Of a stretch of DNA of 10,344 nt, positions 1 through 10,344 are shown one piece after another. Position 1 is the first letter of the stretch; every line of letters begins with the position of its first letter. Source of the DNA: Candidatus Aenigmatarchaeota archaeon (GTDB lineage: Archaea; Aenigmatarchaeota; Aenigmatarchaeia; QMZP01); NCBI GenBank assembly GCA_043824495.1, contig JBDRSV010000028.1:1-10344 (forward strand). The letters run 5' to 3'. The notes under the pieces were generated by a model. That model searched no databases and had not been told where the DNA came from. It was given only the letters and a program-made list of their open reading frames with translations. The translations under genes were made by a program, and so were the position numbers.

Positions 1-540
1 CCTTATCCAGGATTTTATGGTTGTGAATTTGTGCAATTACCGTGGCCAGGAGTGAACACGAAACATGTTTCTTGTCCATACGAGACACCTGGGGCTGCAA
101 TAAACAACGCTCCTGATGCATTCTGTAAAACTGCAATGGGATCCCAATGGGCAGAAGCAGAAATCTGCAACGAACAAGGTATAATTTTATGTTTACATCC
201 ATGTGAGACAACTCCAGCTCATATAAAGGCTCAGAGATGTGCTTTTGAGGCTCAAAGAAACAGAGGAAACCAAGCACCTCCGCTAGATTGGTGTCCTCCT
301 GAAGACCCAGTAACACCTCCTCCATCAGGAGAAGGAAGACCAGATAATTGTGATGACACTGCTTATCAAGCACATCCAGGATATAACGGGAATGAGGCTC
401 TATGGGACGGTTACGCTGCTGATACAGATGGTGTATGTCAAACACGCTTCGGAACAGGCGTGCCAAGTGGTCCATGTGCACACACAGTACAGGTAAGCGT
501 GGGTGGAAATCCATATTACCTATGTTTCTACAATAACTAG
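1..540 (+). CDS. C-terminal part (5'-truncated) of a Cys/Pro/Gly-rich, probably secreted or surface protein
   Basis: Frame is open from base 1 (PYPGFYGCEF precedes the GTG at 31), so the real start is upstream of the window. 12 Cys in 179 visible aa, a PPEDPVTPPP linker, two similar D-x-x-C-x-T-x-x-G...C...LC modules, TAG at 538-540. Localisation is inferred from composition. Confidence 0.75.
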   Translation, partial: PYPGFYGCEFVQLPWPGVNTKHVSCPYETPGAAINNAPDAFCKTAMGSQWAEAEICNEQGIILCLHPCETTPAHIKAQRCAFEAQRNRGNQAPPLDWCPPEDPVTPPPSGEGRPDNCDDTAYQAHPGYNGNEALWDGYAADTDGVCQTRFGTGVPSGPCAHTVQVSVGGNPYYLCFYNN

Positions 541-2319: not shown

Positions 2320-2605
2320 GCTCTATTTTTCCATTTTTAATTTCTATTCCATCTTTTCTAAGTAGAGATATTTTTTCTTTTATCATCTTAGGGTCATTTC
2401 CTGAATATCCACCAATTGAACCATCTGATTTTACAACTCTATAACAAGGAACTTCAATTGGTGTTGGATTAACTTTTAGAGTTTGACCTATTCTTCTGTA
2501 AGCCTTTGTGTTCATTTTCTTTGCTATCTCTCTATAAGTTGTAACCTTACCTTTAGGTATTTCTGAAGTTAATTTCCAAACTCTTTCATTAAAATTCGAC
2601 ATCAT
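2291..2605 (-). CDS. ogt: MGMT/Ogt-family alkylated-DNA repair protein (C-terminal domain only), variant motif PCYRV
   Basis: IPKGKVTTYREIA, RRIGQTLKVNP and PCYRVVKSDGSIGGYSG match the 6-O-methylguanine-DNA methyltransferase DNA-binding/active-site domain. Start is uncertain: GTG 2611, ATG 2605 or ATG 2602. Confidence 0.88.
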   Translation of the reverse strand: MMSNFNERVWKLTSEIPKGKVTTYREIAKKMNTKAYRRIGQTLKVNPTPIEVPCYRVVKSDGSIGGYSGNDPKMIKEKISLLRKDGIEIKNGKIELRKYLHCFV

Positions 2606-2610
2606 GCTCA

Positions 2611-3498
2611 CTATAATTTTGTTGTTATAATTGGCTTATCCAGGACAATTATAGTGTGTTCTGCCTGAGCTATTTTTTTGTTGCTATTCTCTCTGAGAAC
2701 AGGGTAACTTTCTATTGCTCCTACATGTTCTAGTTGTCTCAAAGCCATTGAAACTTTTATTGGACTAAATTTTTTCTGTAACCATCTTTTTGCAAAAGGA
2801 AATTTTTCATATTCTTTTTCTGCAATTTCTAGAATTTTTCTAGCTTCAGGCAATCTCACAGATTTTTGTTGTAAGAATCTATAGATTTCTACCACATTAG
2901 ATTCTTTTACGTGACCATTTCCTGTTGTAACAAATGGCTCTATAGCAATCACTTCACCATCTTTTAATTCATAATCAGAATCATTTGCAATATTTGGAAT
3001 TGAAGGATGCCCATGGAAAACATATCTGTCAATTGTATGGCCAGTTAGATTTACAATTACTCCATAACCCAAAGATTTTGCAGTAGATTCAATTTTTTCT
3101 CCAATCTCACTGATAGTTACTCCAGGTTTCACAATACTAATTGCAGAGTCTAAAGTTTTTTCTACTGCTTCGATAAGTGGATTTTTTTCTGAACAATATG
3201 TAAATGCCATATCTCCAATATATCCATCTACATGAGTTCCAATGTCTATTTTCACAAGATCCCCCGGTTCTATTATTTTTTCATCTGTGTATGAAGGAGT
3301 ATAATGAGCTGCAATTTCATTGATTGAAATGTTGACGGGGAATGCTGGTTTTGCATCTTTTTCAAAAATAGAATTCTCAACAAAATTAGCTAAATCTAGA
3401 ATCCTCATTCCAGGTTTTATCATTTTTAAAACATCTCGTTTAATTTCAGCTCCAATTTTTCCGGCGATTTTATATTTTTCAATTATCTCTTGATCCAT
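2611..3498 (-). CDS. map: Type II methionine aminopeptidase
   Basis: PAFPVNISINEIAAHYTP, VKIDIGTHVDGYIGDMAFT, NLTGH, IAIEPF and AQAEHT metal-binding motifs with the type II helical insert. ATG 3498 (after GTGA SD-like site) preferred over GTG 3507. Confidence 0.96.
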   Translation of the reverse strand: MDQEIIEKYKIAGKIGAEIKRDVLKMIKPGMRILDLANFVENSIFEKDAKPAFPVNISINEIAAHYTPSYTDEKIIEPGDLVKIDIGTHVDGYIGDMAFTYCSEKNPLIEAVEKTLDSAISIVKPGVTISEIGEKIESTAKSLGYGVIVNLTGHTIDRYVFHGHPSIPNIANDSDYELKDGEVIAIEPFVTTGNGHVKESNVVEIYRFLQQKSVRLPEARKILEIAEKEYEKFPFAKRWLQKKFSPIKVSMALRQLEHVGAIESYPVLRENSNKKIAQAEHTIIVLDKPIITTKL

Positions 3499-3526
3499 GA
3501 AATTCACTTGAATAATTTATTTTTCA

Positions 3527-3540
3527 GTTTTAAATTTGTG
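3527..3540 (-). promoter_or_regulatory. TATA box for the map-ogt unit
   Basis: Minus strand reads CACAAATTTAAAAC; TTTAAAA starts 27 nt upstream of 3507. Confidence 0.4.
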
Positions 3541-3545
3541 TTTTG

Positions 3546-3593
3546 TATTTTTTTCTGTAAAAAATTCTATTTTTTTCTAAAAAATTTTAGAAA
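3546..3593. repeat. Imperfect 22-bp tandem repeat overlapping a 20-bp inverted repeat
   Basis: TATTTTTTTCTGTAAAAAATT (3546) and TATTTTTTTCTAAAAAATT (3568). Palindrome TTTCTAAAA-AA-TTTTAGAAA at 3574-3593. Confidence 0.4.
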
Positions 3594-3604
3594 TTTGTAG
3601 TTGC

Positions 3605-3612
3605 TTTATATA
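3605..3612 (+). promoter_or_regulatory. Consensus TATA box upstream of the Lys-rich micro-ORF
   Basis: TTTATATA is a consensus archaeal TATA box, 82 nt upstream of ATG 3687. Confidence 0.55.
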
Positions 3613-3686
3613 GGACCTCAACCAAATAGTAATTAAAAGCATCTAATGTTAATCCGATTAAAAATTTAAAGTTGGAGGTAATTAAA

Positions 3687-3755
3687 ATGGCAGCAAAGAA
3701 AAAGAAGACAGCAAAAAAAACAACAAAGAAAACAACAAAGAAAAAGAAGAGATAA
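3687..3755 (+). CDS. 22-aa Lys-rich basic micro-protein (not in ORF track)
   Basis: MAAKKKKTAKKTTKKTTKKKKR*. GGAGGT SD at 3674-3679 with 7-nt spacing, upstream TATA, downstream T-tract. Internal 12-bp tandem repeat AAAACAACAAAG x2 (3717-3740). Confidence 0.7.
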   Translation: MAAKKKKTAKKTTKKTTKKKKR

Positions 3756-3773
3756 ACGCTAACAACAACTTAG

Positions 3774-3788
3774 TTTTTTGTTTTCTTT
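3774..3788 (+). terminator. Oligo-T archaeal terminator candidate after the micro-ORF
   Basis: TTTTTTGTTTTCTTT 19 nt after the stop codon at 3755. Confidence 0.45.
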
Positions 3789-3900
3789 AGTTTAATTATT
3801 ATATTACTTCTATTGAATTTATTTACTGGCTAGCTAAAAGAATACAGTTTTATGACCAACAAAGAGCACAAATAAGTGAGTCTTTTAGATTTTAATCTAT

Positions 3901-4662
3901 TTATTTTATGTTTTTTAGAAGTTCTTCGTGTATTTTTCCATTTGTTGCAACAAGATTTTTTTTCGTTAGATCCCATTCATTTCCTTCAAAGTCTGTTACT
4001 TTTCCACCAGATTCTTTTACCAATAAAATTCCAGCTGCAACATCCCATGGTCTCACGTTATTGTAAATGAATCCACCAAATCTTCCTGCAGCAACAAAAG
4101 CTAATTCCAAAGCACCAGATTTCATTCTATCAAAATCTTTTGCAGCTTTTTTGAGTTTTCCAAAAATTTCTGATATTTTTTTCAAATCTTCATCTGTTTT
4201 TCCGTGACAAAAAGTAATTAAACACTTAGAAAGTGATTGTTCATCTGATACACTAATTTTTTTATCATTCAAGAAAGCTCCTTTACCTTTCTCAGCTACA
4301 AATAATTCGTTTATTATAGGAGCATAAATAACTCCGAGAATAATTTCGTTGTTTTTTGCTAAGCCAATTGATGTGTTAAAGAAAGGATTTCTAACGGAAT
4401 AATTTGTTGTTCCGTCTATAGGGTCTATAATCCATGTATATTCTGAACTTTTATTTTCCTCTCCAGATTCTTCTGAAAGAATATTATGATCAGGAAAATG
4501 TTTTTTAATTTCTGAAAGAATTATTTTTTCTGCTTCCATGTCAACATTTGTGACATCTTCTTTCAATCCTTTATCTTTTATGTGGTGAATATCACCAAAC
4601 TTCTCTACTAAAAGTTTACCTGCTTCTTTTGCAGCTTTGATTGCAACTTCTTTTTCATTCAT
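3901..4662 (-). CDS. suhB: Inositol monophosphatase / FBPase family protein
   Basis: ILSEE, WIIDPIDGTTNY, SGALELAFVAAGRFGG and PWDVAAG signature motifs. Confidence 0.94.
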   Translation of the reverse strand: MNEKEVAIKAAKEAGKLLVEKFGDIHHIKDKGLKEDVTNVDMEAEKIILSEIKKHFPDHNILSEESGEENKSSEYTWIIDPIDGTTNYSVRNPFFNTSIGLAKNNEIILGVIYAPIINELFVAEKGKGAFLNDKKISVSDEQSLSKCLITFCHGKTDEDLKKISEIFGKLKKAAKDFDRMKSGALELAFVAAGRFGGFIYNNVRPWDVAAGILLVKESGGKVTDFEGNEWDLTKKNLVATNGKIHEELLKNIK

Positions 4663-4682
4663 AGAAGAATATTTGAACTGTG

Positions 4683-4690
4683 ATTTAAAT
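4683..4690. promoter_or_regulatory. Palindromic TATA box in the divergent suhB / metallopeptidase spacer
   Basis: ATTTAAAT lies in the middle of a 50-bp spacer; TTTAAA begins 27 nt before ATG 4662 (-) and 29 nt before ATG 4713 (+). Confidence 0.55.
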
Positions 4691-4712
4691 TACTTGTAAT
4701 CATAAATTCTAC

Positions 4713-5081
4713 ATGCCTATAAGATATGAAAAAGCTATAGATTTGGAGAGCCAGATCATAGATATTTCACGTAAACTAGGTTTTGACCACATAGATCTAT
4801 CTAGAGTCATTTGTGTGAGAAGCTATGGCTCTAAAGCTAGAAGAACCCTGGCTAGGTGCCATACTCTACCAAGAATCATGCAAAAAGCCCTGGATAAGAA
4901 GTCACATTACGTGATAGAAGTAATAACTGAAAGTTTTGATAAACTCTCAGATGAAAATAAAACTAAAACACTTATTCATGAACTCATGCATATTCCAAAA
5001 TCCTTTAAAGGTGGATTTAGATTTCATGATCATGTCACAGATAGAAATGTGAATGAAATGTATAAGAGGTTAATTCAATGA
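4713..5081 (+). CDS. Putative zincin metallopeptidase (small archaeal/phage metallopeptidase-like family)
   Basis: HELMH (HExxH) preceded by YVIEVITESFDKLSDENKTKTLI, followed by HD. HIDLSRVICVRS and ARCH segments are typical of this small archaeal family. Confidence 0.78.
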   Translation: MPIRYEKAIDLESQIIDISRKLGFDHIDLSRVICVRSYGSKARRTLARCHTLPRIMQKALDKKSHYVIEVITESFDKLSDENKTKTLIHELMHIPKSFKGGFRFHDHVTDRNVNEMYKRLIQ

Positions 5082-5665
5082 TAGAAGAAGTCAGAAAAAT
5101 TGTAGAGAAAGAGTGTACAAGTAAAAAAGATTTGTATGACATAAAGAACTTCAATTGGGATTTTCATATTCTAATAGTTGTTAAATACGCCAAGTTACTA
5201 TCAAAAAAACTTAATTCTGATGAAGAACTAGCAGAATTGGGAGCTTTACTTCATGATATTGGAAGAGTTAAATTTGGAGGAAAATATCACGAAAAAACTG
5301 GTATATCGGAAGCGGAGAAAATATTGAAGGATGTTGGATATTCTCAGGATGTAATAAATGAAATTAAACATTGCGTTGAATCTCATAGAGGAAATGAGAA
5401 TACTCCAACTAAAACAACCACAGCAAAAATAGTAGCGAATGCTGATGCATTAGCACATTTTGACGTAATTCCGCTTATGCTTGAGATTGGTATCAGAAAA
5501 TATAATGGAGACATTAGAAAAGGTGCTGATTGGCTATACGATAAAATGAAGAGAAATTGGGATAAAAAAATAACACTTCCAGAAGCAAGAGAGTTAGTAA
5601 AAGATAAATACGAAGCTTTTATGATATTATTTGATTCTTATAGAGAGATTAAGCCTAGTCACTAG
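5078..5665 (+). CDS. HD-domain phosphohydrolase
   Basis: Full H...HD...H...H...D set (FHILIV, LLHDIGR, YHEK, SHRG, ANADALAH). ATGA overlap with the upstream stop; GAGGT SD at 5066-5070. Confidence 0.88.
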   Translation: MIEEVRKIVEKECTSKKDLYDIKNFNWDFHILIVVKYAKLLSKKLNSDEELAELGALLHDIGRVKFGGKYHEKTGISEAEKILKDVGYSQDVINEIKHCVESHRGNENTPTKTTTAKIVANADALAHFDVIPLMLEIGIRKYNGDIRKGADWLYDKMKRNWDKKITLPEARELVKDKYEAFMILFDSYREIKPSH

Positions 5666-6063
5666 CTCAAAGCTTCAATTGATTTTACAACGGCTTTAAT
5701 AGCATTGGATGCGTACTTATCAATTCTTTCTTCTGCCTGCTTTCTTGTTATATTAGGACCCATTATACCCAACGTAACAGGTTTATTGTATTTGAGAGAA
5801 AGCTTTGTCAAATAACTAGCAGTTGTTTGAGCAATTAGTTTATCATGATCTGTTCCACCCTGAATTATTATGCCTAGAACTACAACACCATCAATATCTT
5901 TTTCTAATAGAGATTTGACTATCAAAGGAGAATCATAAGATCCGAAAACTCTTTTAATGTCAATTATATCTACACCTAATTCTTTTGCCTTATGCTGGGC
6001 TGATTCCAGCATCTTATCTGTAAGTTCTTTGTAGAACTCAGCTACAACTATTCCTATTTTCAT
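5662..6063 (-). CDS. ribH: 6,7-dimethyl-8-ribityllumazine synthase, archaeal type
   Basis: IGIVVAEF, GSYDSPL, DGVVVLG, IQGGTDHD, KPVTLGIMGP and QAEER align with archaeal lumazine synthases; Phe and His active-site positions are retained. Confidence 0.92.
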   Translation of the reverse strand: MKIGIVVAEFYKELTDKMLESAQHKAKELGVDIIDIKRVFGSYDSPLIVKSLLEKDIDGVVVLGIIIQGGTDHDKLIAQTTASYLTKLSLKYNKPVTLGIMGPNITRKQAEERIDKYASNAIKAVVKSIEALS

Positions 6064-6083
6064 GAAAAACTTTTGTCAGGGGG

Positions 6084-6095
6084 TTTTAAAAAGTT
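6084..6095 (-). promoter_or_regulatory. TATA box for leaderless ribH
   Basis: Minus strand AACTTTTTAAAA; TTTAAAA starts 27 nt upstream of ATG 6063. Confidence 0.5.
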
Positions 6096-6134
6096 ATTTA
6101 CCCATAATCCGGAGAGTAACCTCTTTTCCAAGGA

Positions 6135-6142
6135 ATATAAAT
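6135..6142 (+). promoter_or_regulatory. TATA box for the leaderless DedA/VTT gene
   Basis: ATATAAAT; TATAAA starts 29 nt upstream of ATG 6165; no SD. Confidence 0.45.
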
Positions 6143-6164
6143 CCAATTAAATTCAAATATAATC

Positions 6165-6671
6165 ATGGATCTTGGAACGCTTACACAACAACTGTTTGAT
6201 TGGTCAAATGAAGTTGCTCAAACATGGGGCTATTTTGGAATATTCATAATATCTTTTATTGGAAATGCGTCTATTTTCTTACCTGTTCCTGCTTACATCA
6301 TCACAGTCACATTTGGTTCTATACTAAATCCATGGTTAGTTGGAATTGCTTCAGCTTTAGGTGCAGCTCTGGGTGAGATCACAGGTTATTTGTTGGGAAG
6401 AGGTGGAAGAGAAGTTTTATTAGAGAAATATGAAAAAAACTTCAAAAGAGCAAAGAAATGGATAGAAACTCATGGAATATTCCCAGTAATAATTTTGTTT
6501 GCAGCTACCCCTCTCCCAGATGAAGTTGTTGGTATAATGGCAGGAGCAATTAATTATAATATAAAGAAGTTCTTACTGGCATCGTTCTTAGGTAAATTAT
6601 TATTATACACTGCTTTAGCCATGGCAGGATATTATGGAATTAGTTTTGTTCTAGGTTTATTCGCTATATAA
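6165..6671 (+). CDS. DedA/VTT (SNARE-associated Golgi) family membrane protein
   Basis: FLPVP, GAALGEITGYLLGRGG and ATPLPDEVVGIMAG motifs with multiple hydrophobic helices. Confidence 0.88.
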   Translation: MDLGTLTQQLFDWSNEVAQTWGYFGIFIISFIGNASIFLPVPAYIITVTFGSILNPWLVGIASALGAALGEITGYLLGRGGREVLLEKYEKNFKRAKKWIETHGIFPVIILFAATPLPDEVVGIMAGAINYNIKKFLLASFLGKLLLYTALAMAGYYGISFVLGLFAI

Positions 6672-6701
6672 TATATTAACTATAAAGAATAACTATATAA
6701 T

Positions 6702-6818
6702 ATGAGAATGAGTTTACCAGCTATTGCAGCTATAATCATACTCACTTTGATGGTTATGCTTGCTCTATGGTTGTTCTTAGCAGATAAGTGGCAGGTACCA
6801 GGGAGTTTTCTGACGTGA
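6702..6818 (+). CDS. 38-aa single-pass membrane micro-protein, pilin-like (not in ORF track)
   Basis: MRMSLPAIAAIIILTLMVMLALWLFLADKWQVPGSFLT*. About 22-residue hydrophobic helix. Its TGA lies inside the GTGATC SD of the next ORF. Alternative start at 6708. Confidence 0.6.
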   Translation: MRMSLPAIAAIIILTLMVMLALWLFLADKWQVPGSFLT

Positions 6819-6822
6819 TCTT

Positions 6823-6996
6823 ATGAAAAAAGGCGTTATTGATTTAATGATTAGTCCTGTTGGATTTTTAGTAATTACCATTGTTATTGCAATTTTCATA
6901 TTTCTTTTTTATATGGGTACAAATGGAGAAGCTGGGTTTTTTGAAAATCTTGGAGATGCTTTCTCCGGAATATTCGAAGGTTTTAAGTTGATCTAG
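6823..6996 (+). CDS. 57-aa pilin-like protein with class III signal peptide (not in ORF track)
   Basis: MKKG|VIDLMISPVGFLVITIVIAIFIFLFYMGTNGEAGFFENLGDAFSGIFEGFKLI*. KKG cleavage motif followed by a hydrophobic helix; GTGATC SD at 6815-6820; its TAG directly abuts ATG 6997. Confidence 0.78.
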   Translation: MKKGVIDLMISPVGFLVITIVIAIFIFLFYMGTNGEAGFFENLGDAFSGIFEGFKLI

Positions 6997-9777
6997 ATGG
7001 CAAAAAAAGGATCTCTTGGTGTGCAGCAGCTTATTTTAGGAATAGGTGCACTCATGATAGTATTCATTGCGATGTTAGTTGTAACTAATGCTTTGGGTGG
7101 AACTGGTTTTGTAAGTGATTGGTTTGAAAAATTATTTGGACAGGGACAAGGAGAAGATCTTGGCATAGCGATAGATTCTATGGATGCTTTGACATGTGCA
7201 ATTAATTCTGTTGCATTGGATTCAGATCAATGTTCTAGTAAATCTTTTGGATTGAGTAGTGTATCTTGTGGACAAATATGCTGTAGCTATCTAGAAGGAA
7301 CCAACACAGAAAGCAAGTGGTTGAATTATGAAGAATGTAAACTAAAGAATGAAGGTAAATCAGTCTCAGATACAGGACCATGTGGTCCAATTGATGAAGG
7401 TGTAATTTGTTGCCAGAAAGAAATTGATGAAACATTTTACGAGTGGGTCTCATCACCAAACCAGTGTGATGATATTGTAAGAGAAAAACGTTCAGGTGGC
7501 GGTCCAATGGATGATGGTCATCCAGATGAAATTAAATGTAAAAATGCTCCAGGTACTGGAGGCATATGTTGTGAAATAGAAAGAGGTAATGAATATAAAT
7601 GGGCTACTCAATGCACAGGTGAATATAAGTTCATGAATGATAATGTTTGCATTTCTACAATAGGACAAAAAACAGTTCCAACTAATTTAGAATGTAAGAT
7701 TGGGAAATTCCAGCTACCTCAGCCAATAAGTGAAGCAGAAGATTGGTTAGCATTTATGGGAGATCCAGAATATCTTGCATATTGGCAGAATTTCCCTGCT
7801 GAAGAAGATACATGGACATTCGAACCTGGCTGGAAATTGTACACTTTCATAGCCATTATTAGCATAATACCACCATTTAAAGCTGGAAAAATTGTGACAG
7901 CTACGGTAATGAAAAAAACTTTGGGCACGTTTTTCGAAAGACTTGTCGTTAAAGTAACAGGTAAAGAAGCTTTAGAGAGAATTGTAACAAAGAGTGTAAC
8001 AGAAAGCATGATTAGAAAAAGTGCACGTGATGCAGTTAAAGATATGATAAAACGTAATGTCATAAAAAAAGAAGCTGGTGACAAGATATTACAAAACCTA
8101 GGAAAGGCAGATGTAAAGGTTGCTGTTCAAAAAGCAAATGATAATATGAAAAAAGAGTTAGCTAAGGATGTTACAAAAACAACAGAGGTTACAAATAAAT
8201 ATGCAGAAGAAACTTTACATTCTACGCTTCAAGATGCTGGAATGTTTGATGCAACTGTAAGGTCAGGGTTCTTTGAAATATCAGAAGAAGCAGTAAATAA
8301 ATTACAGAAAAAGGCTCTTTCTACTGCTCAAAGAGCTGCGCTTAAACAAATGAATGCTCTAGGACTAAGAGAACAGTTTTTAGAATTGATAGAGAAAAGA
8401 CTGATCGGTAGAGATTTACCTAAAACGTTACTCAAGTTCGGAACACTTAGTGGTGTTGTAAGAACAATTGCAATAGCAGATAATATGACTCAAGCTAGAT
8501 TCGAACCTATTCCAAGCGAAATTGTACTAAAACCTGCACTTTTAGAACCTATAGTTTTTGAGATATCAAACAACTGGAAAGAGAAGCCTGTTTTAATATC
8601 AACAATTAATACTAAACGAGTTTTTGGCGCGGGCCCCATGCTTATTGACGAAGAGAGACCTTTCCATTTGGTATCACCTTGTTATCTGGACACTCTAAAT
8701 ATTGAGAAAACTATTGTTGAATGCCCACAATATGTAATATCTGATCAGGACGGAAAAACATTAGTAGAGTGTGTAAGTAAAGGTCAAAGTGGTAATAGTG
8801 GCATTGATTTAGAGATAGAAGACAATTTTGGTGATACTGTTTGTGATGCAAGAACTTATGATACAATGGATTTTGGACCTCTAGAATTCTTTGATAATAA
8901 TTTACAGAAAATACCCGATGTTGCAGCTATAAACAAGAATGATAATGAATACTTAATTCCTATAAAAAATGATCTAGTATTCCACTATAATGAAAAAGAA
9001 CCTGAAAAGAGTAAAGCTGTTTTATGGGAAAATAATTATGTTTCAATCACTCCAAACAAATTGGAATACCCTGTAATCATGATTTCAGATGAGGAAATGG
9101 AAGTTCCAGGAATTGATTACATTGAAAGGGTGAGAAGCATTGTACTTGAAACTGGTACTGATGCTCCGTATCAAGTTGAAACAAACCCTAATGAAAGAAT
9201 AAGCATGTATTTTGTAATAGAAGATCCAAAATATGAAGAAATTCAGGTCATTATCAGTAGTTATGACGAAAGTAAAAATCCAGGAAAAAGTATACAAACT
9301 GTTATGCATTTAATTGAAGGTTCTTTTAGTTCACCAACTGGAACAATTATACTCTCTGATGAAGGAGATGACGGAACTGTTCATACAATAGATGTAAGCA
9401 AACAGGGTGTTTCAAATGCGCATAATAGATATGCTATGAAAGGTAAAACAATGACTGACAGTAATTTTGATAGACCCGGTTTTGAATATATAAGATTAGA
9501 TGATTGTAGAACAGAAACAATTTTAGTTGAAATGGGAAGCAAAACTCAAGGATATGATGATAATTATTGTACATCAGGAGCCAGCACAACAGATGCATGG
9601 ATAGAATGGGGAGCTGATGTAGCCATGGTAGGTGGAATAGTAGTAGGTACTATGGTAGGTGGAGCAGGAGGATTTGCCATAATCGGTATTACCGGTTTAA
9701 CACAAGTTGCAGTAGACCCCGATGCTATCGATGTTCTCGATATTCCAGGAGATTGGCCGGATTCTCAGTGGAGTTAA
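6997..9777 (+). CDS. 926-aa multidomain surface protein with class III signal peptide, Cys repeats, basic helical module and C-terminal glycine zipper
   Basis: MAKKG|SLGVQQLILGIGALMIVFIAMLVV N-terminus; three ICC...W...C repeats; internal hydrophobic segment FIAIISIIPPFKAGK; C-terminal GxxxGxxxGxxxG. Function unknown. Confidence 0.85.
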   Translation: MAKKGSLGVQQLILGIGALMIVFIAMLVVTNALGGTGFVSDWFEKLFGQGQGEDLGIAIDSMDALTCAINSVALDSDQCSSKSFGLSSVSCGQICCSYLEGTNTESKWLNYEECKLKNEGKSVSDTGPCGPIDEGVICCQKEIDETFYEWVSSPNQCDDIVREKRSGGGPMDDGHPDEIKCKNAPGTGGICCEIERGNEYKWATQCTGEYKFMNDNVCISTIGQKTVPTNLECKIGKFQLPQPISEAEDWLAFMGDPEYLAYWQNFPAEEDTWTFEPGWKLYTFIAIISIIPPFKAGKIVTATVMKKTLGTFFERLVVKVTGKEALERIVTKSVTESMIRKSARDAVKDMIKRNVIKKEAGDKILQNLGKADVKVAVQKANDNMKKELAKDVTKTTEVTNKYAEETLHSTLQDAGMFDATVRSGFFEISEEAVNKLQKKALSTAQRAALKQMNALGLREQFLELIEKRLIGRDLPKTLLKFGTLSGVVRTIAIADNMTQARFEPIPSEIVLKPALLEPIVFEISNNWKEKPVLISTINTKRVFGAGPMLIDEERPFHLVSPCYLDTLNIEKTIVECPQYVISDQDGKTLVECVSKGQSGNSGIDLEIEDNFGDTVCDARTYDTMDFGPLEFFDNNLQKIPDVAAINKNDNEYLIPIKNDLVFHYNEKEPEKSKAVLWENNYVSITPNKLEYPVIMISDEEMEVPGIDYIERVRSIVLETGTDAPYQVETNPNERISMYFVIEDPKYEEIQVIISSYDESKNPGKSIQTVMHLIEGSFSSPTGTIILSDEGDDGTVHTIDVSKQGVSNAHNRYAMKGKTMTDSNFDRPGFEYIRLDDCRTETILVEMGSKTQGYDDNYCTSGASTTDAWIEWGADVAMVGGIVVGTMVGGAGGFAIIGITGLTQVAVDPDAIDVLDIPGDWPDSQWS

Positions 9778-10344
9778 AAAGTAGAAGAGTTTCTTACGAT
9801 ACTATAGACTTTCCAACCATTTTCACGTTGATTCAAATCTAAACGGGTTCTTACTAATGTTTCTTCGCAGCTACCATCATCACGATCTATTGCAAGAGTG
9901 AATGCAGCATAAGCAAATGTTCCATCAGAATGTGTCTGTGTATCCGCTATTTTGTATCGTGAAACAGGGTTTGTTGTTCTTCCTGGTCTAAAATTACCAT
10001 CACAAGCCATGTTTATTATACTCTGATCTTCTGCATTATACCCCTCAATAAAAGCATGTAAAGTATGAACAGCGTCATTAAAATTATATAAACTTTTATT
10101 TCCATCCATGTTAGGTTTGTCTGGTGTATACCAACCGTTTCTATCATGTCTTAATTGAACTTGACCATTATCATCTACTATGGATCTCTTAAGTGTAGGC
10201 CCGAGAGCAACATACCAACTATTGCTATCATTTACAAGTAAATAGAAATCTATCTCTTTACCCATTTTACGTTGAATTCCATATGTTTCAATCATAACTT
10301 CAGAAGGACTAATGCCTGTAACACTTTTTATGTGAATTTCTGTA
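9774..10344 (-). CDS. C-terminal part (5'-truncated) of a hypothetical protein, possibly ending in an NTF2-like domain
   Basis: The frame stays open from ATG 10295 to the window edge (TEIHIKSVTGISPSEV), so the start is probably outside the window. C-terminal AYAAFTLAI...TRLDLNQRENGWKVYSI resembles the last strands of NTF2/SnoaL-like folds (by eye). Confidence 0.65.
   Translation of the reverse strand, partial: TEIHIKSVTGISPSEVMIETYGIQRKMGKEIDFYLLVNDSNSWYVALGPTLKRSIVDDNGQVQLRHDRNGWYTPDKPNMDGNKSLYNFNDAVHTLHAFIEGYNAEDQSIINMACDGNFRPGRTTNPVSRYKIADTQTHSDGTFAYAAFTLAIDRDDGSCEETLVRTRLDLNQRENGWKVYSIVRNSSTF

Follow-up and report, generated by a model that had tools for sequence, protein, structure and literature searches.

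A large-protein family with a pilin-like N-terminus and its probable link to the type IV filament machine of Aenigmatarchaeota

Does a cluster of two tiny and one very large membrane protein in an Aenigmatarchaeota genome belong to a type IV filament, and which part might its large member play there? The question is raised by a stretch of 10,344 bp, referred to here as the window, which is the entire contig C28 of a metagenome-assembled genome (MAG) of 1.01 Mb in 29 contigs, ~80% complete. Its plus strand carries three open reading frames (ORFs), namely ORF1 (38 aa, positions 6702-6818), ORF2 (57 aa, 6823-6996) and ORF3 (926 aa, 6997-9777), the last of which encodes what we call the large protein. 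An initial annotation had described a coupled pilin-like cluster of a DPANN archaeon, ending in a giant minor or tip pilin with a role in host contact. The organism is indeed a DPANN archaeon, placed in the Aenigmatarchaeota by its conserved-core loci. A conserved module, made up of the 57-aa and 926-aa proteins, accompanies this phylum's core type IV filament (TFF) machine; that the 38-aa ORF is also part of the module is less certain.

Family, gene neighbourhood and N-termini of the module

Searches of Pfam and NCBIfam with all three proteins returned nothing at E<=0.1, a DUF1694 trace of 18 bits falling below the cut-off of 25, and a profile search of PDB sequences gave no match to any of the three. 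Neither these searches nor the fold searches described below assigned the large protein to a known non-pilus family, the outcome that the initial annotation had named as speaking against its proposal. A word-based search recovered one full-length relative of the large protein (P0004, 33% identity over 99% of the length). An exhaustive HMMER search extended the family to 185 representative clusters at E<=1e-3, 85 of them at E<=1e-10, with most members 600-1,100 aa long. Members that were looked up are all annotated as "hypothetical protein" of Candidatus Aenigmarchaeota/Aenigmatarchaeota, and the loci retrieved by the conserved-core pattern likewise come from Aenigmatarchaeota MAGs. A family hidden Markov model (HMM) detected the gene in 39 of 41 related genomes, among them all 17 of high quality, mostly at one locus per genome. 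It is present in 48 of the 50 sampled genomes of the window's order, whereas in the other orders of the class only 11 genomes of 150 have it at E<=1e-8; weaker relatives with the WP end described below also occur in other orders.

The gene neighbourhood in relatives ties this family to a TFF machine. Loci and genomes of relatives are labelled L0xx in the following, and the window's genome G000, with its contigs C5, C25 and so on. In L029, L030 and L031, all from one family of the order, a T2SSE ATPase of ~745-750 aa is followed by a ~700-aa platform protein and then by the large gene. Located 3' of the large gene are a ~50-aa transmembrane (TM) protein and a 103-113-aa protein starting with MKG followed by LSLTLTIVIIAIVLLV, which by its sequence is a typical small archaeal pilin; further genes of the array encode several proteins, all starting with [KR]G and a hydrophobic helix. 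Judged by coordinates, the large gene lies directly after the ~700-aa protein in 7 of 7 genomes sampled from that family. This ~700-aa protein is a platform of the T2SSF type, with 4 of 8 orthologues passing the Pfam T2SSF cut-off over the whole domain. Of the 201 genomes sampled from the phylum, 198 contain it, in most cases with one hit each, at 34-60% identity. The link to a type IV-like filament made in the initial annotation is thus supported by relatives, whose orthologue stands directly after ATPase and platform amid pilin-like genes.

The same arrangement extends beyond the window's order, where 12 loci show ATPase and platform beside a variable array of class III-signal proteins. In L049, from another order, ATPase and platform are accompanied by three tiny TM genes and then by a 937-aa family member ending in RWPNTQQ. 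L053 and L060, also from outside the order, hold shorter and weaker relatives ending in WKWPG and WIWPK, which sit in the gene array adjoining the platform and match at E ~1e-5 to 1e-4 with the HMM of A2, the smaller of two family alignments (A1, 80 members; A2, 35 members). Since ATPase, platform and array recur together across the phylum, they constitute its core TFF locus, with the large-protein family as one recurrent component. In L027, L028 and L033 the large gene is separated from the ATPase, yet its pilin-like neighbours are retained. A link between the large-protein family and the TFF machine is therefore very probable.

The window contains no peptidase, ATPase or platform gene, as the initial annotation had noted, and all three were found elsewhere in the genome, where it had proposed that peptidase and ATPase genes be sought. 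The ATPase is encoded at C25:3383-7150 (minus strand), the platform at C5:19025-21109 (51% identity to the L029 platform) and an A24 prepilin-type peptidase of 280 aa at C5:25684-26526. A tblastn search of this genome with relatives' pilin-like and hydrolase proteins recovered the ATPase, the platform and a few neighbours on the ATPase side, and nothing else. The ATPase measures 1,255 aa, compared with ~745 aa in relatives, and holds a ~490-aa intein with a LAGLIDADG endonuclease (insert ~4178-5647; Intein_splicing E 7e-29); the L051 orthologue (2537-6280) is similarly long, at 1,247 aa. The genome also contains at least two additional type IV filament loci (C24:53858-66147, C6:2594-5082, C10:19656-21328 and C19:9814-11003), which have ATPase and platform genes of their own and different pilin N-terminal types, KAQAA.EY and RGVSP. 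An ORF with a bacterial-type prepilin N-terminus, ..TRG followed by FTLIELMIVVVIIGG, is located at G000:C5:133565-134047.

The small-small-large gene order, which had been proposed as a feature to look for in relatives, is kept in a MAG of the same genus as 43 aa, 53 aa and large, together with the flanking synteny; therefore, the small-plus-large module moved as a unit. Between its VTT gene and its tiny ORFs, this MAG has one more gene (L035:5685-7829), absent from the window, for a secreted, Cys-rich protein of 714 aa with a MopE-type metal-binding motif and a weak GHL15 hit. Within the window, the TGA stop of ORF1 (6816-6818) lies inside GTGATC (6815-6820), 2 bases 5' of the ORF2 ATG, and the TAG stop of ORF2 (6994-6996) directly adjoins the ORF3 ATG (6997), with TGATC just before the TAG. 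Exact coordinates, stop-start overlaps and homologues agree with the earlier description of three coupled same-strand ORFs. Translational coupling is plausible because GTGATC corresponds to the 3' half of the extended archaeal Shine-Dalgarno sequence GGAGGTGATC. ORF1, a single TM helix without a KG motif, is the least certain gene call of the three. Its counterparts show weak sequence similarity, and the same-genus MAG and L033 have a tiny TM ORF, of 43 aa and 41 aa respectively, in its place.

ORF2 and ORF3 start with MKKGVIDL and MAKKGSLGV, each followed by an uncharged hydrophobic stretch of ~24 residues, which confirms the M(A)KKG-plus-helix description given earlier. Peak hydropathy reaches 3.2 in the 57-aa protein and 2.9 over residues 12-30 of the large protein. 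A short basic leader ending in [KR][GA] is present in these two proteins and not in the 38-aa ORF, and 85 of the 140 family members that have an N-terminal helix carry [KR][GA] directly before it; Q is the commonest residue at +1, with Q, I and F the leading ones. The FlaFind-type pattern [KRDE][GA][ALIFQMVED][ILMVTAS] at -2 to +2, applied as a regular expression, is fitted by KGVI of the 57-aa protein and by 43 of the 140 family members. The N-terminal motif of the large protein is suggestive of a class III signal, with putative cleavage, and agrees with the co-encoded pilin-like proteins. Of the earlier class III assignment, the appearance of the N-termini and the fit of KGVI stand, whereas the large protein's own KGSL and the profile searches do not agree with it, as detailed where its role is weighed.

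Across the order, a gene for a tiny TM protein of 49-65 aa is the immediate neighbour of the large gene on one side or the other, as in L016, L017, L020, L021, L023, L031, L032, L033 and L048. Many of these proteins begin with MEFTLRT and have no leader; MK[KR]G is found instead in the 57-aa protein of the window and in its counterpart from the same genus. Leaderless partners of 49-59 aa starting with MEFTLRT or MEVT (L016:1339-1488, L017:1342-1497, L020:4076-4225, L023:32-184 and L031:11311-11490) resemble pilins that are in mature form from the outset, for which a prepilin peptidase would not be required. In the 57-aa protein, with its MKKG leader, TM helix and amphipathic G-x-N-G...GFFENLGDAFSGIFEGF tail, and in its same-genus counterpart, the helix is followed by a G-rich break and then by an amphipathic F/W...L...F.G helix. 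The same succession of helix, G-rich break and amphipathic helix is seen at the N-terminus of the large protein, and the large-protein family HMM matches tiny ORFs over HMM positions 6-53. Thus, tiny and large proteins have a common N-terminal module, as in pilins of one system.

The trio is surrounded by housekeeping genes of the window, namely those for ribosomal L6 and L32e, an M24 peptidase, inositol monophosphatase, lumazine synthase and a VTT/DedA membrane protein. By eye, an AT-rich, TATA-like stretch (AATATATTA, TATAAAG) was seen on the plus strand at 6670-6690, 12-32 nt 5' of the ORF1 ATG, and is a possible promoter of a near-leaderless three-gene transcript. A sigma-70 promoter and terminator scan of the window, a type of scan unsuited to archaea, gave results at chance level, and Rfam and tRNA scans of the window returned no matches. 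Among the housekeeping genes, a 122-aa ORF at 4713-5081 (plus strand) matches the 'putative phage metallopeptidase' family PF18894 (E 3.5e-22) and is kept in the same-genus MAG. ORFs at 1-540 (plus strand) and 9774-10343 (minus strand) run off the contig ends and gave no family match. The former lies in a stretch of 46% GC compared with ~32% elsewhere in the window, and the latter is convergent with the large gene and overlaps its stop codon.

Segments and predicted topology of the large protein

Hallmarks of the family in its N-terminal half are [KR]G with a TM helix, GGxGF..WF..LFG, SxxALxCAINSV and a variable Cys-rich insert. The family signature C..NFxLPQ...AE.WI..YGDPxFLVYWQxFPxEEDTW is followed by a hydrophobic stretch ending in P.GK, and the C-terminal half adds a basic helical module, FHLVSPC with conserved Cys, NYC, a Gly-rich hydrophobic segment and a terminal WP. 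Every invariant family column is present in the window's large protein, which shows the full-length architecture of the family.

Along the protein, residues 1-33 (6997-7095, plus strand as for all segments) comprise the MAKKG leader and the class III-like TM helix, modelled by AlphaFold2 (AF2) as a helix over residues 9-32 with a predicted local distance difference test score (pLDDT) of ~80. According to the family consensus, residues 34-85 (7096-7251) form the amphipathic helix GGTGF..WF..LFG and then the conserved helix SxxALxCAINSV; S61, A68 and C79 are near-invariant in the family alignments, and pLDDT is 88-95 at residues 55-80. Residues 87-227 (7255-7677) are an acidic, Cys-rich region with pLDDT below 50, the length of which varies by more than 100 aa among homologues. 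This region holds 13 of the 22 Cys of the protein, 16 of which lie within residues 67-233 and the others at 562, 576, 592, 616, 837 and 858. The signature core C..F.LPQ...AE.W...GDP.YL.YWQ.FP.EEDTW, followed by the hydrophobic segment 281-301 ending in P.GK (family-mean hydropathy 1.36), occupies residues 229-300 (7681-7896), which are the best-conserved stretch across 150 matches, with G255, D256, P257, P267 and W273 invariant.

Residues 301-502 (7897-8502) consist of a basic, K-rich helical bundle without Cys (301-475) and an amphipathic helix (476-502), with a conserved ADN/ADS motif and helices of pLDDT 77-90. Next comes a beta-rich, acidic domain (residues 503-865; 8503-9591), in which six Cys are conserved and the motifs FHLVSPC and NYC occur. 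The last segment, residues 866-926 (9592-9777, stop codon included), combines a Gly/Ala/Val-rich hydrophobic stretch at 867-904 with an acidic tail ending in GDWPDSQWS, of which W920 and P921 are invariant in the family alignments. A WP within the last 25 aa occurs in 133 of 150 family members, compared with 3 of 356 long ORFs of the window's genome, and in 124 of these 133 a hydrophobic segment directly precedes it.

The AF2 model of the large protein, based on the 80-sequence alignment, reached a pLDDT of 63 and a predicted template modelling score (pTM) of 0.64. Confident parts are the helices 9-32 and 49-74, the beta-hairpin 230-263, the helical bundle 304-470 and much of the beta-rich stretches 508-620 and 780-860; the Cys-rich insert and residues 680-736 are poorly modelled. 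At the N-terminus, helix 9-32 is followed by a break at GGTG and by helices 38-47 and 49-74, a layout of moderate confidence. The beta domain modelled alone gave a pLDDT of 59.6. Foldseek searches of the PDB with the whole model and the beta domain returned no match at E<=0.001, and the ESM Atlas gave no usable match to the large protein. The matches of a wide VIA-align search were helical bundles of a generic kind (Z<=7.5) and porin-like barrels or curved beta-sheets (Z<=6.5), values within the stated noise of the tool. Pilins were absent from the fold matches, a result still compatible with a pilin fold, in which one long N-terminal helix packs against a small beta-sheet head. A LolA/START-like lipid-binding cup was considered and dropped, as the VIA-align matches were within the noise range.

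Averaged over the family, hydropathy marks three hydrophobic segments, 4-41, 281-301 and 867-904. Between them, residues 33-278 have a family net charge of -13 and 7.5 Cys, residues 301-475 a net charge of +8.6 and zero Cys, and residues 503-865 a net charge of -21 and 6.6 Cys. As a prediction from composition, this pattern permits two topologies, either an ectodomain of ~830 residues held at both ends or a polytopic protein with a cytoplasmic basic bundle. N-X-S/T sequons are depleted across the family, with 83 observed in A1 and 345 expected from shuffles, and 0 versus 23 in the basic module. The window's large protein has 1 sequon versus 5 expected, N496 in the conserved ADNMTQ; the genome-wide sequon ratio is 1.17, and an AglB/STT3 gene is located at G000:C26:33869-35200. 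Neither sequon depletion nor Cys absence was accepted as a discriminator of topology: orthologues of the cytoplasmic ATPase also have a sequon ratio of 0.5, and cytoplasmic helical neighbours are also without Cys.

Murein modules and possible roles

In the core TFF locus of relatives, pilin-like proteins carry murein modules, and the module found at one gene position is exchanged between lineages. M23 domains (E 1e-19 to 1e-25) are joined to a pilin-like N-terminus at L030:14326-15390, L031:14518-15633, L053:1530-3461 and L060:15922-17769, and Peptidase_M15_4 (E 1e-16) at L029:3512-4486; L029 also gave a weak SLT hit. Pilin-like proteins of L027 (4026-5111 and 2803-4029) bear Glucosaminidase (E 6e-21) or PG_binding_1 (E 1e-8). 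M23 genes, typically ORFs of 310-380 aa, are present in 18 of the 41 relatives, the same-genus MAG having one, and lie 2-5 kb from the large gene or a tiny N-terminal-like gene in at least 8 genomes. Murein synthesis is not known from archaea of this group. Murein hydrolases in DPANN archaea have been interpreted as signs of attack on bacteria (PMC9723730).

Pilin-like proteins with murein modules thus make the TFF machine look like a contact apparatus for peptidoglycan-walled cells. Judged by the murein modules of relatives, it is most likely a device that attaches to a peptidoglycan-walled partner and opens the wall locally. The machine, with its large protein, is a good candidate for a means of gripping or attacking a host. 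The host-interaction role proposed in the initial annotation gains support from these modules; the giant minor or tip pilin that it proposed is less favoured, as three hydrophobic segments and the terminal WP fit a subunit of the archaeon's own membrane at least as well.

For the large protein itself we tentatively favour a subunit tethered in the archaeon's own membrane, a reading to which we give slightly less than an even chance. It is preferred because the protein has three conserved hydrophobic segments, because its invariant terminal WP looks like a contact with a conserved partner and because stop-start coupling to tiny TM partners suits a fixed-ratio complex. Here, the A24 (PibD-type) peptidase would probably trim the leaders, and the N-terminal helices of the tiny and large proteins would pack together at the platform or filament base. 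The Gly-rich C-terminal hydrophobic segment would hold the large protein in the archaeon's own membrane, and the invariant WP tail would touch the conserved partner. At the end of the filament nearest the cell, the large protein would then serve as an anchor or adaptor, with its Cys-stabilised ectodomain of ~830 residues as a surface-exposed collar or contact face, and the surrounding filament would, in relatives, bear the pilin-like proteins fused to murein hydrolases.

Several observations weigh against the pilus link in this genome. The module is unlinked to any TFF gene in the window's genome, with the ATPase on C25 and the platform on C5, and the large gene is also unlinked to ATPase and platform in the window's genus and in most genomes of its own family. 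[KR][GA] before the helix is missing in 55 of the 140 family members, KGSL of the large protein fails the strict FlaFind-type pattern at +1 (S), and in Pfam and NCBIfam none of the three proteins has a profile match to Class_IIIsignal, Pilin_N or the NCBIfam archaeal N-terminal domain. In addition, a search for M23 and M15_4 found no murein hydrolase in the window's genome, which is 80% complete. Against the anchored reading, segment 281-301 is borderline hydrophobic (1.36-1.8), helix 476-502 is not clearly TM, and the C-terminal segment, of only moderate hydrophobicity, might come out of the membrane. Confidence in the AF2 models is middling (pLDDT 63 and 60), and nothing puts the large protein at the filament base rather than at the tip.

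The strongest alternative, possible and in our judgement rather unlikely, is the giant minor pilin capping the filament tip. Along with the tiny pilin-like proteins, it would be pulled out of the membrane; its variable Cys-rich region would recognise the host, and its basic helices and Gly-rich C-terminal hairpin would insert into the host membrane. The class III-like N-terminus is common to the co-encoded pilin-like proteins, a 900-aa body could presumably sit only at the filament end, and the length-variable Cys-rich region suits recognition. Such a protein, with up to three hydrophobic segments, would however be costly to extract from its own membrane. Its C-terminal segment, Gly/Ala-rich and moderately hydrophobic, resembles the insertion hairpins of pore-formers, but no pore-former or fusion fold was among the Foldseek and VIA-align matches, and the invariant terminal WP looks like a contact with a partner of the cell's own machinery rather than a lipid-inserting end. 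Sequon depletion throughout the family, most marked in the basic module, would agree with a tip pilin; the argument is weak in view of the ratio of 0.5 in the cytoplasmic ATPase orthologues. Murein-hydrolase pilins in the same loci of relatives and the existence of modular pilins (PMC8179133) fit a tip pilin as well.

A polytopic platform subunit is a less probable, indeed unlikely, solution. TM1 would lead outward into a first ectodomain, segment 281-301 back in, residues 301-475 would contact the ATPase in the cytoplasm, helix 476-502 would lead out again to a second ectodomain, and the C-terminal segment would anchor the end, in the manner of GspL, PilM-N-O or the archaellum stator. The family-wide partition of charge and Cys fits the positive-inside rule, even though the absence of Cys is not diagnostic, given the Cys-free cytoplasmic neighbours. 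The middle module is flanked by hydrophobic or amphipathic helices, of which 476-502 has a family-mean hydropathy of only ~0.9 with conserved charged residues, and 281-301 is borderline hydrophobic with pLDDT below 50. The gene lies directly 3' of the platform gene in several lineages; on the other hand, the lack of any sequon in the middle module, where 23 are expected, would be needless for a cytoplasmic domain.

An S-layer-like or general envelope protein that stands near pilus genes in some lineages and has no filament role is very unlikely, since the large, acidic, Cys-rich protein with a C-terminal anchor, reminiscent of the S-layer-like proteins of crenarchaeal pilus loci (PMC4858521) and unlinked to ATPase and platform in the window and most genomes of its own family, has a pilin-like rather than Sec-like N-terminus shared with its tiny neighbours, keeps pilin-like neighbours even apart from the ATPase (L027, L028, L033), is depleted of sequons rather than enriched, hits no S-layer Pfam family and adjoins the platform within one family of the order as well as in at least one of the genomes sampled from another order.

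Known systems and partner cells

Bulky subunits at the tip or in the priming complex of filaments are known as GspK in the type II secretion system, as PilY1/PilC with minor pilins in type IVa pili and as the large TadG-type pseudopilins of Tad systems. The likeness lies in a single bulky subunit for each filament that is encoded together with small pilin-like proteins; similarity to the large protein in sequence or fold was not seen, and these proteins are not known to have a C-terminal membrane segment. Other components stay at the base of type IV filaments, such as the archaellum stator proteins ArlF/ArlG and the alignment proteins PilN/PilO and GspL/GspM. Like the large protein they have an N-terminal pilin-like or bitopic TM helix carrying an extracellular domain, but they are much smaller, have different folds and showed no detectable homology to it.

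An archaeal type IV filament with class III-signal subunits is in itself of a known kind, the FlaFind class (Makarova, Koonin and Albers 2016, PMC4858521). With the archaeal class III-signal proteins processed by PibD, FlaK or EppA, the large protein has in common a basic leader ending in [KR]G and a hydrophobic helix of ~20-25 residues, and it resembles archaeal type IV pilins in that relatives' genes lie in an array of similar genes behind T2SSE/T2SSF, with an A24 peptidase in the genome. It differs from such pilins by a size of 926 aa, far above that of typical pilins, by a helix broken at GGxG, by extra hydrophobic segments and a WP end, by S at +1 and by the lack of a Class_IIIsignal or Pilin_N match.

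PilB and PilC of Streptococcus sanguinis are modular type IV pilins, in which a pilin N-terminus is grafted onto adhesion domains (PMC8179133, PMC9934059). A pilin module on large domains is likewise seen here, and relatives' neighbouring proteins bear M23, M15, glucosaminidase and peptidoglycan-binding modules. The known modular pilins, however, are bacterial and have recognisable folds (vWA, lectin), whereas the domains of the large protein match no known fold, and its C-terminal membrane segment is not a feature of the known ones. Type IV pilus loci of Thermoproteales encode large, Cys-rich 'S-layer-like' proteins with a C-terminal TM helix (arCOG05471; PMC4858521). These too are large, Cys-bearing surface proteins with a C-terminal anchor inside archaeal type IV pilus loci. 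Compared by description only, they differ from the large protein in having a single C-terminal anchor and no pilin-like N-terminus, and they come from Crenarchaeota rather than DPANN archaea.

The literature searches made here yielded no published description of the large-protein family or of pilin-hydrolase fusions in Aenigmatarchaeota. As judged by these comparisons, three things appear to be new: the family itself, the architecture, with a pilin-like N-terminus at one end and, at the other, a hydrophobic segment with an invariant WP, and the placement of the family in the phylum's core TFF locus beside murein-hydrolase pilin-like proteins. The combination of pilin-like N-terminus, C-terminal hydrophobic segment and invariant WP lies outside current pilin and platform classes.

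Little is known of the ways in which DPANN archaea recognise their hosts, hold on to them and exploit them, and the module bears on this area. We know of no cultured Aenigmatarchaeota and of no established host for the phylum. An unnamed family, near-universal in its order, is tied here to the type IV filament machine retained by almost all genomes sampled from the phylum, and gene arrays with hydrolase-fused and peptidoglycan-binding pilin-like proteins provide concrete, testable candidates for a contact apparatus. In a bolder and quite improbable version, the core TFF of Aenigmatarchaeota would act as a harpoon that breaches bacterial walls: pilin-tethered M23, M15 and glucosaminidase modules would cut the murein, and the 926-aa protein at the filament end would insert its basic helices and Gly-rich C-terminal hairpin into the bacterial membrane, making a contact site or conduit. 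If this were true, a DPANN lineage would live on bacterial rather than archaeal hosts by means of a new kind of pilus-delivered membrane-insertion protein. The hydrolase-fused pilin-like proteins of relatives also hint that the partners of Aenigmatarchaeota may be bacteria.

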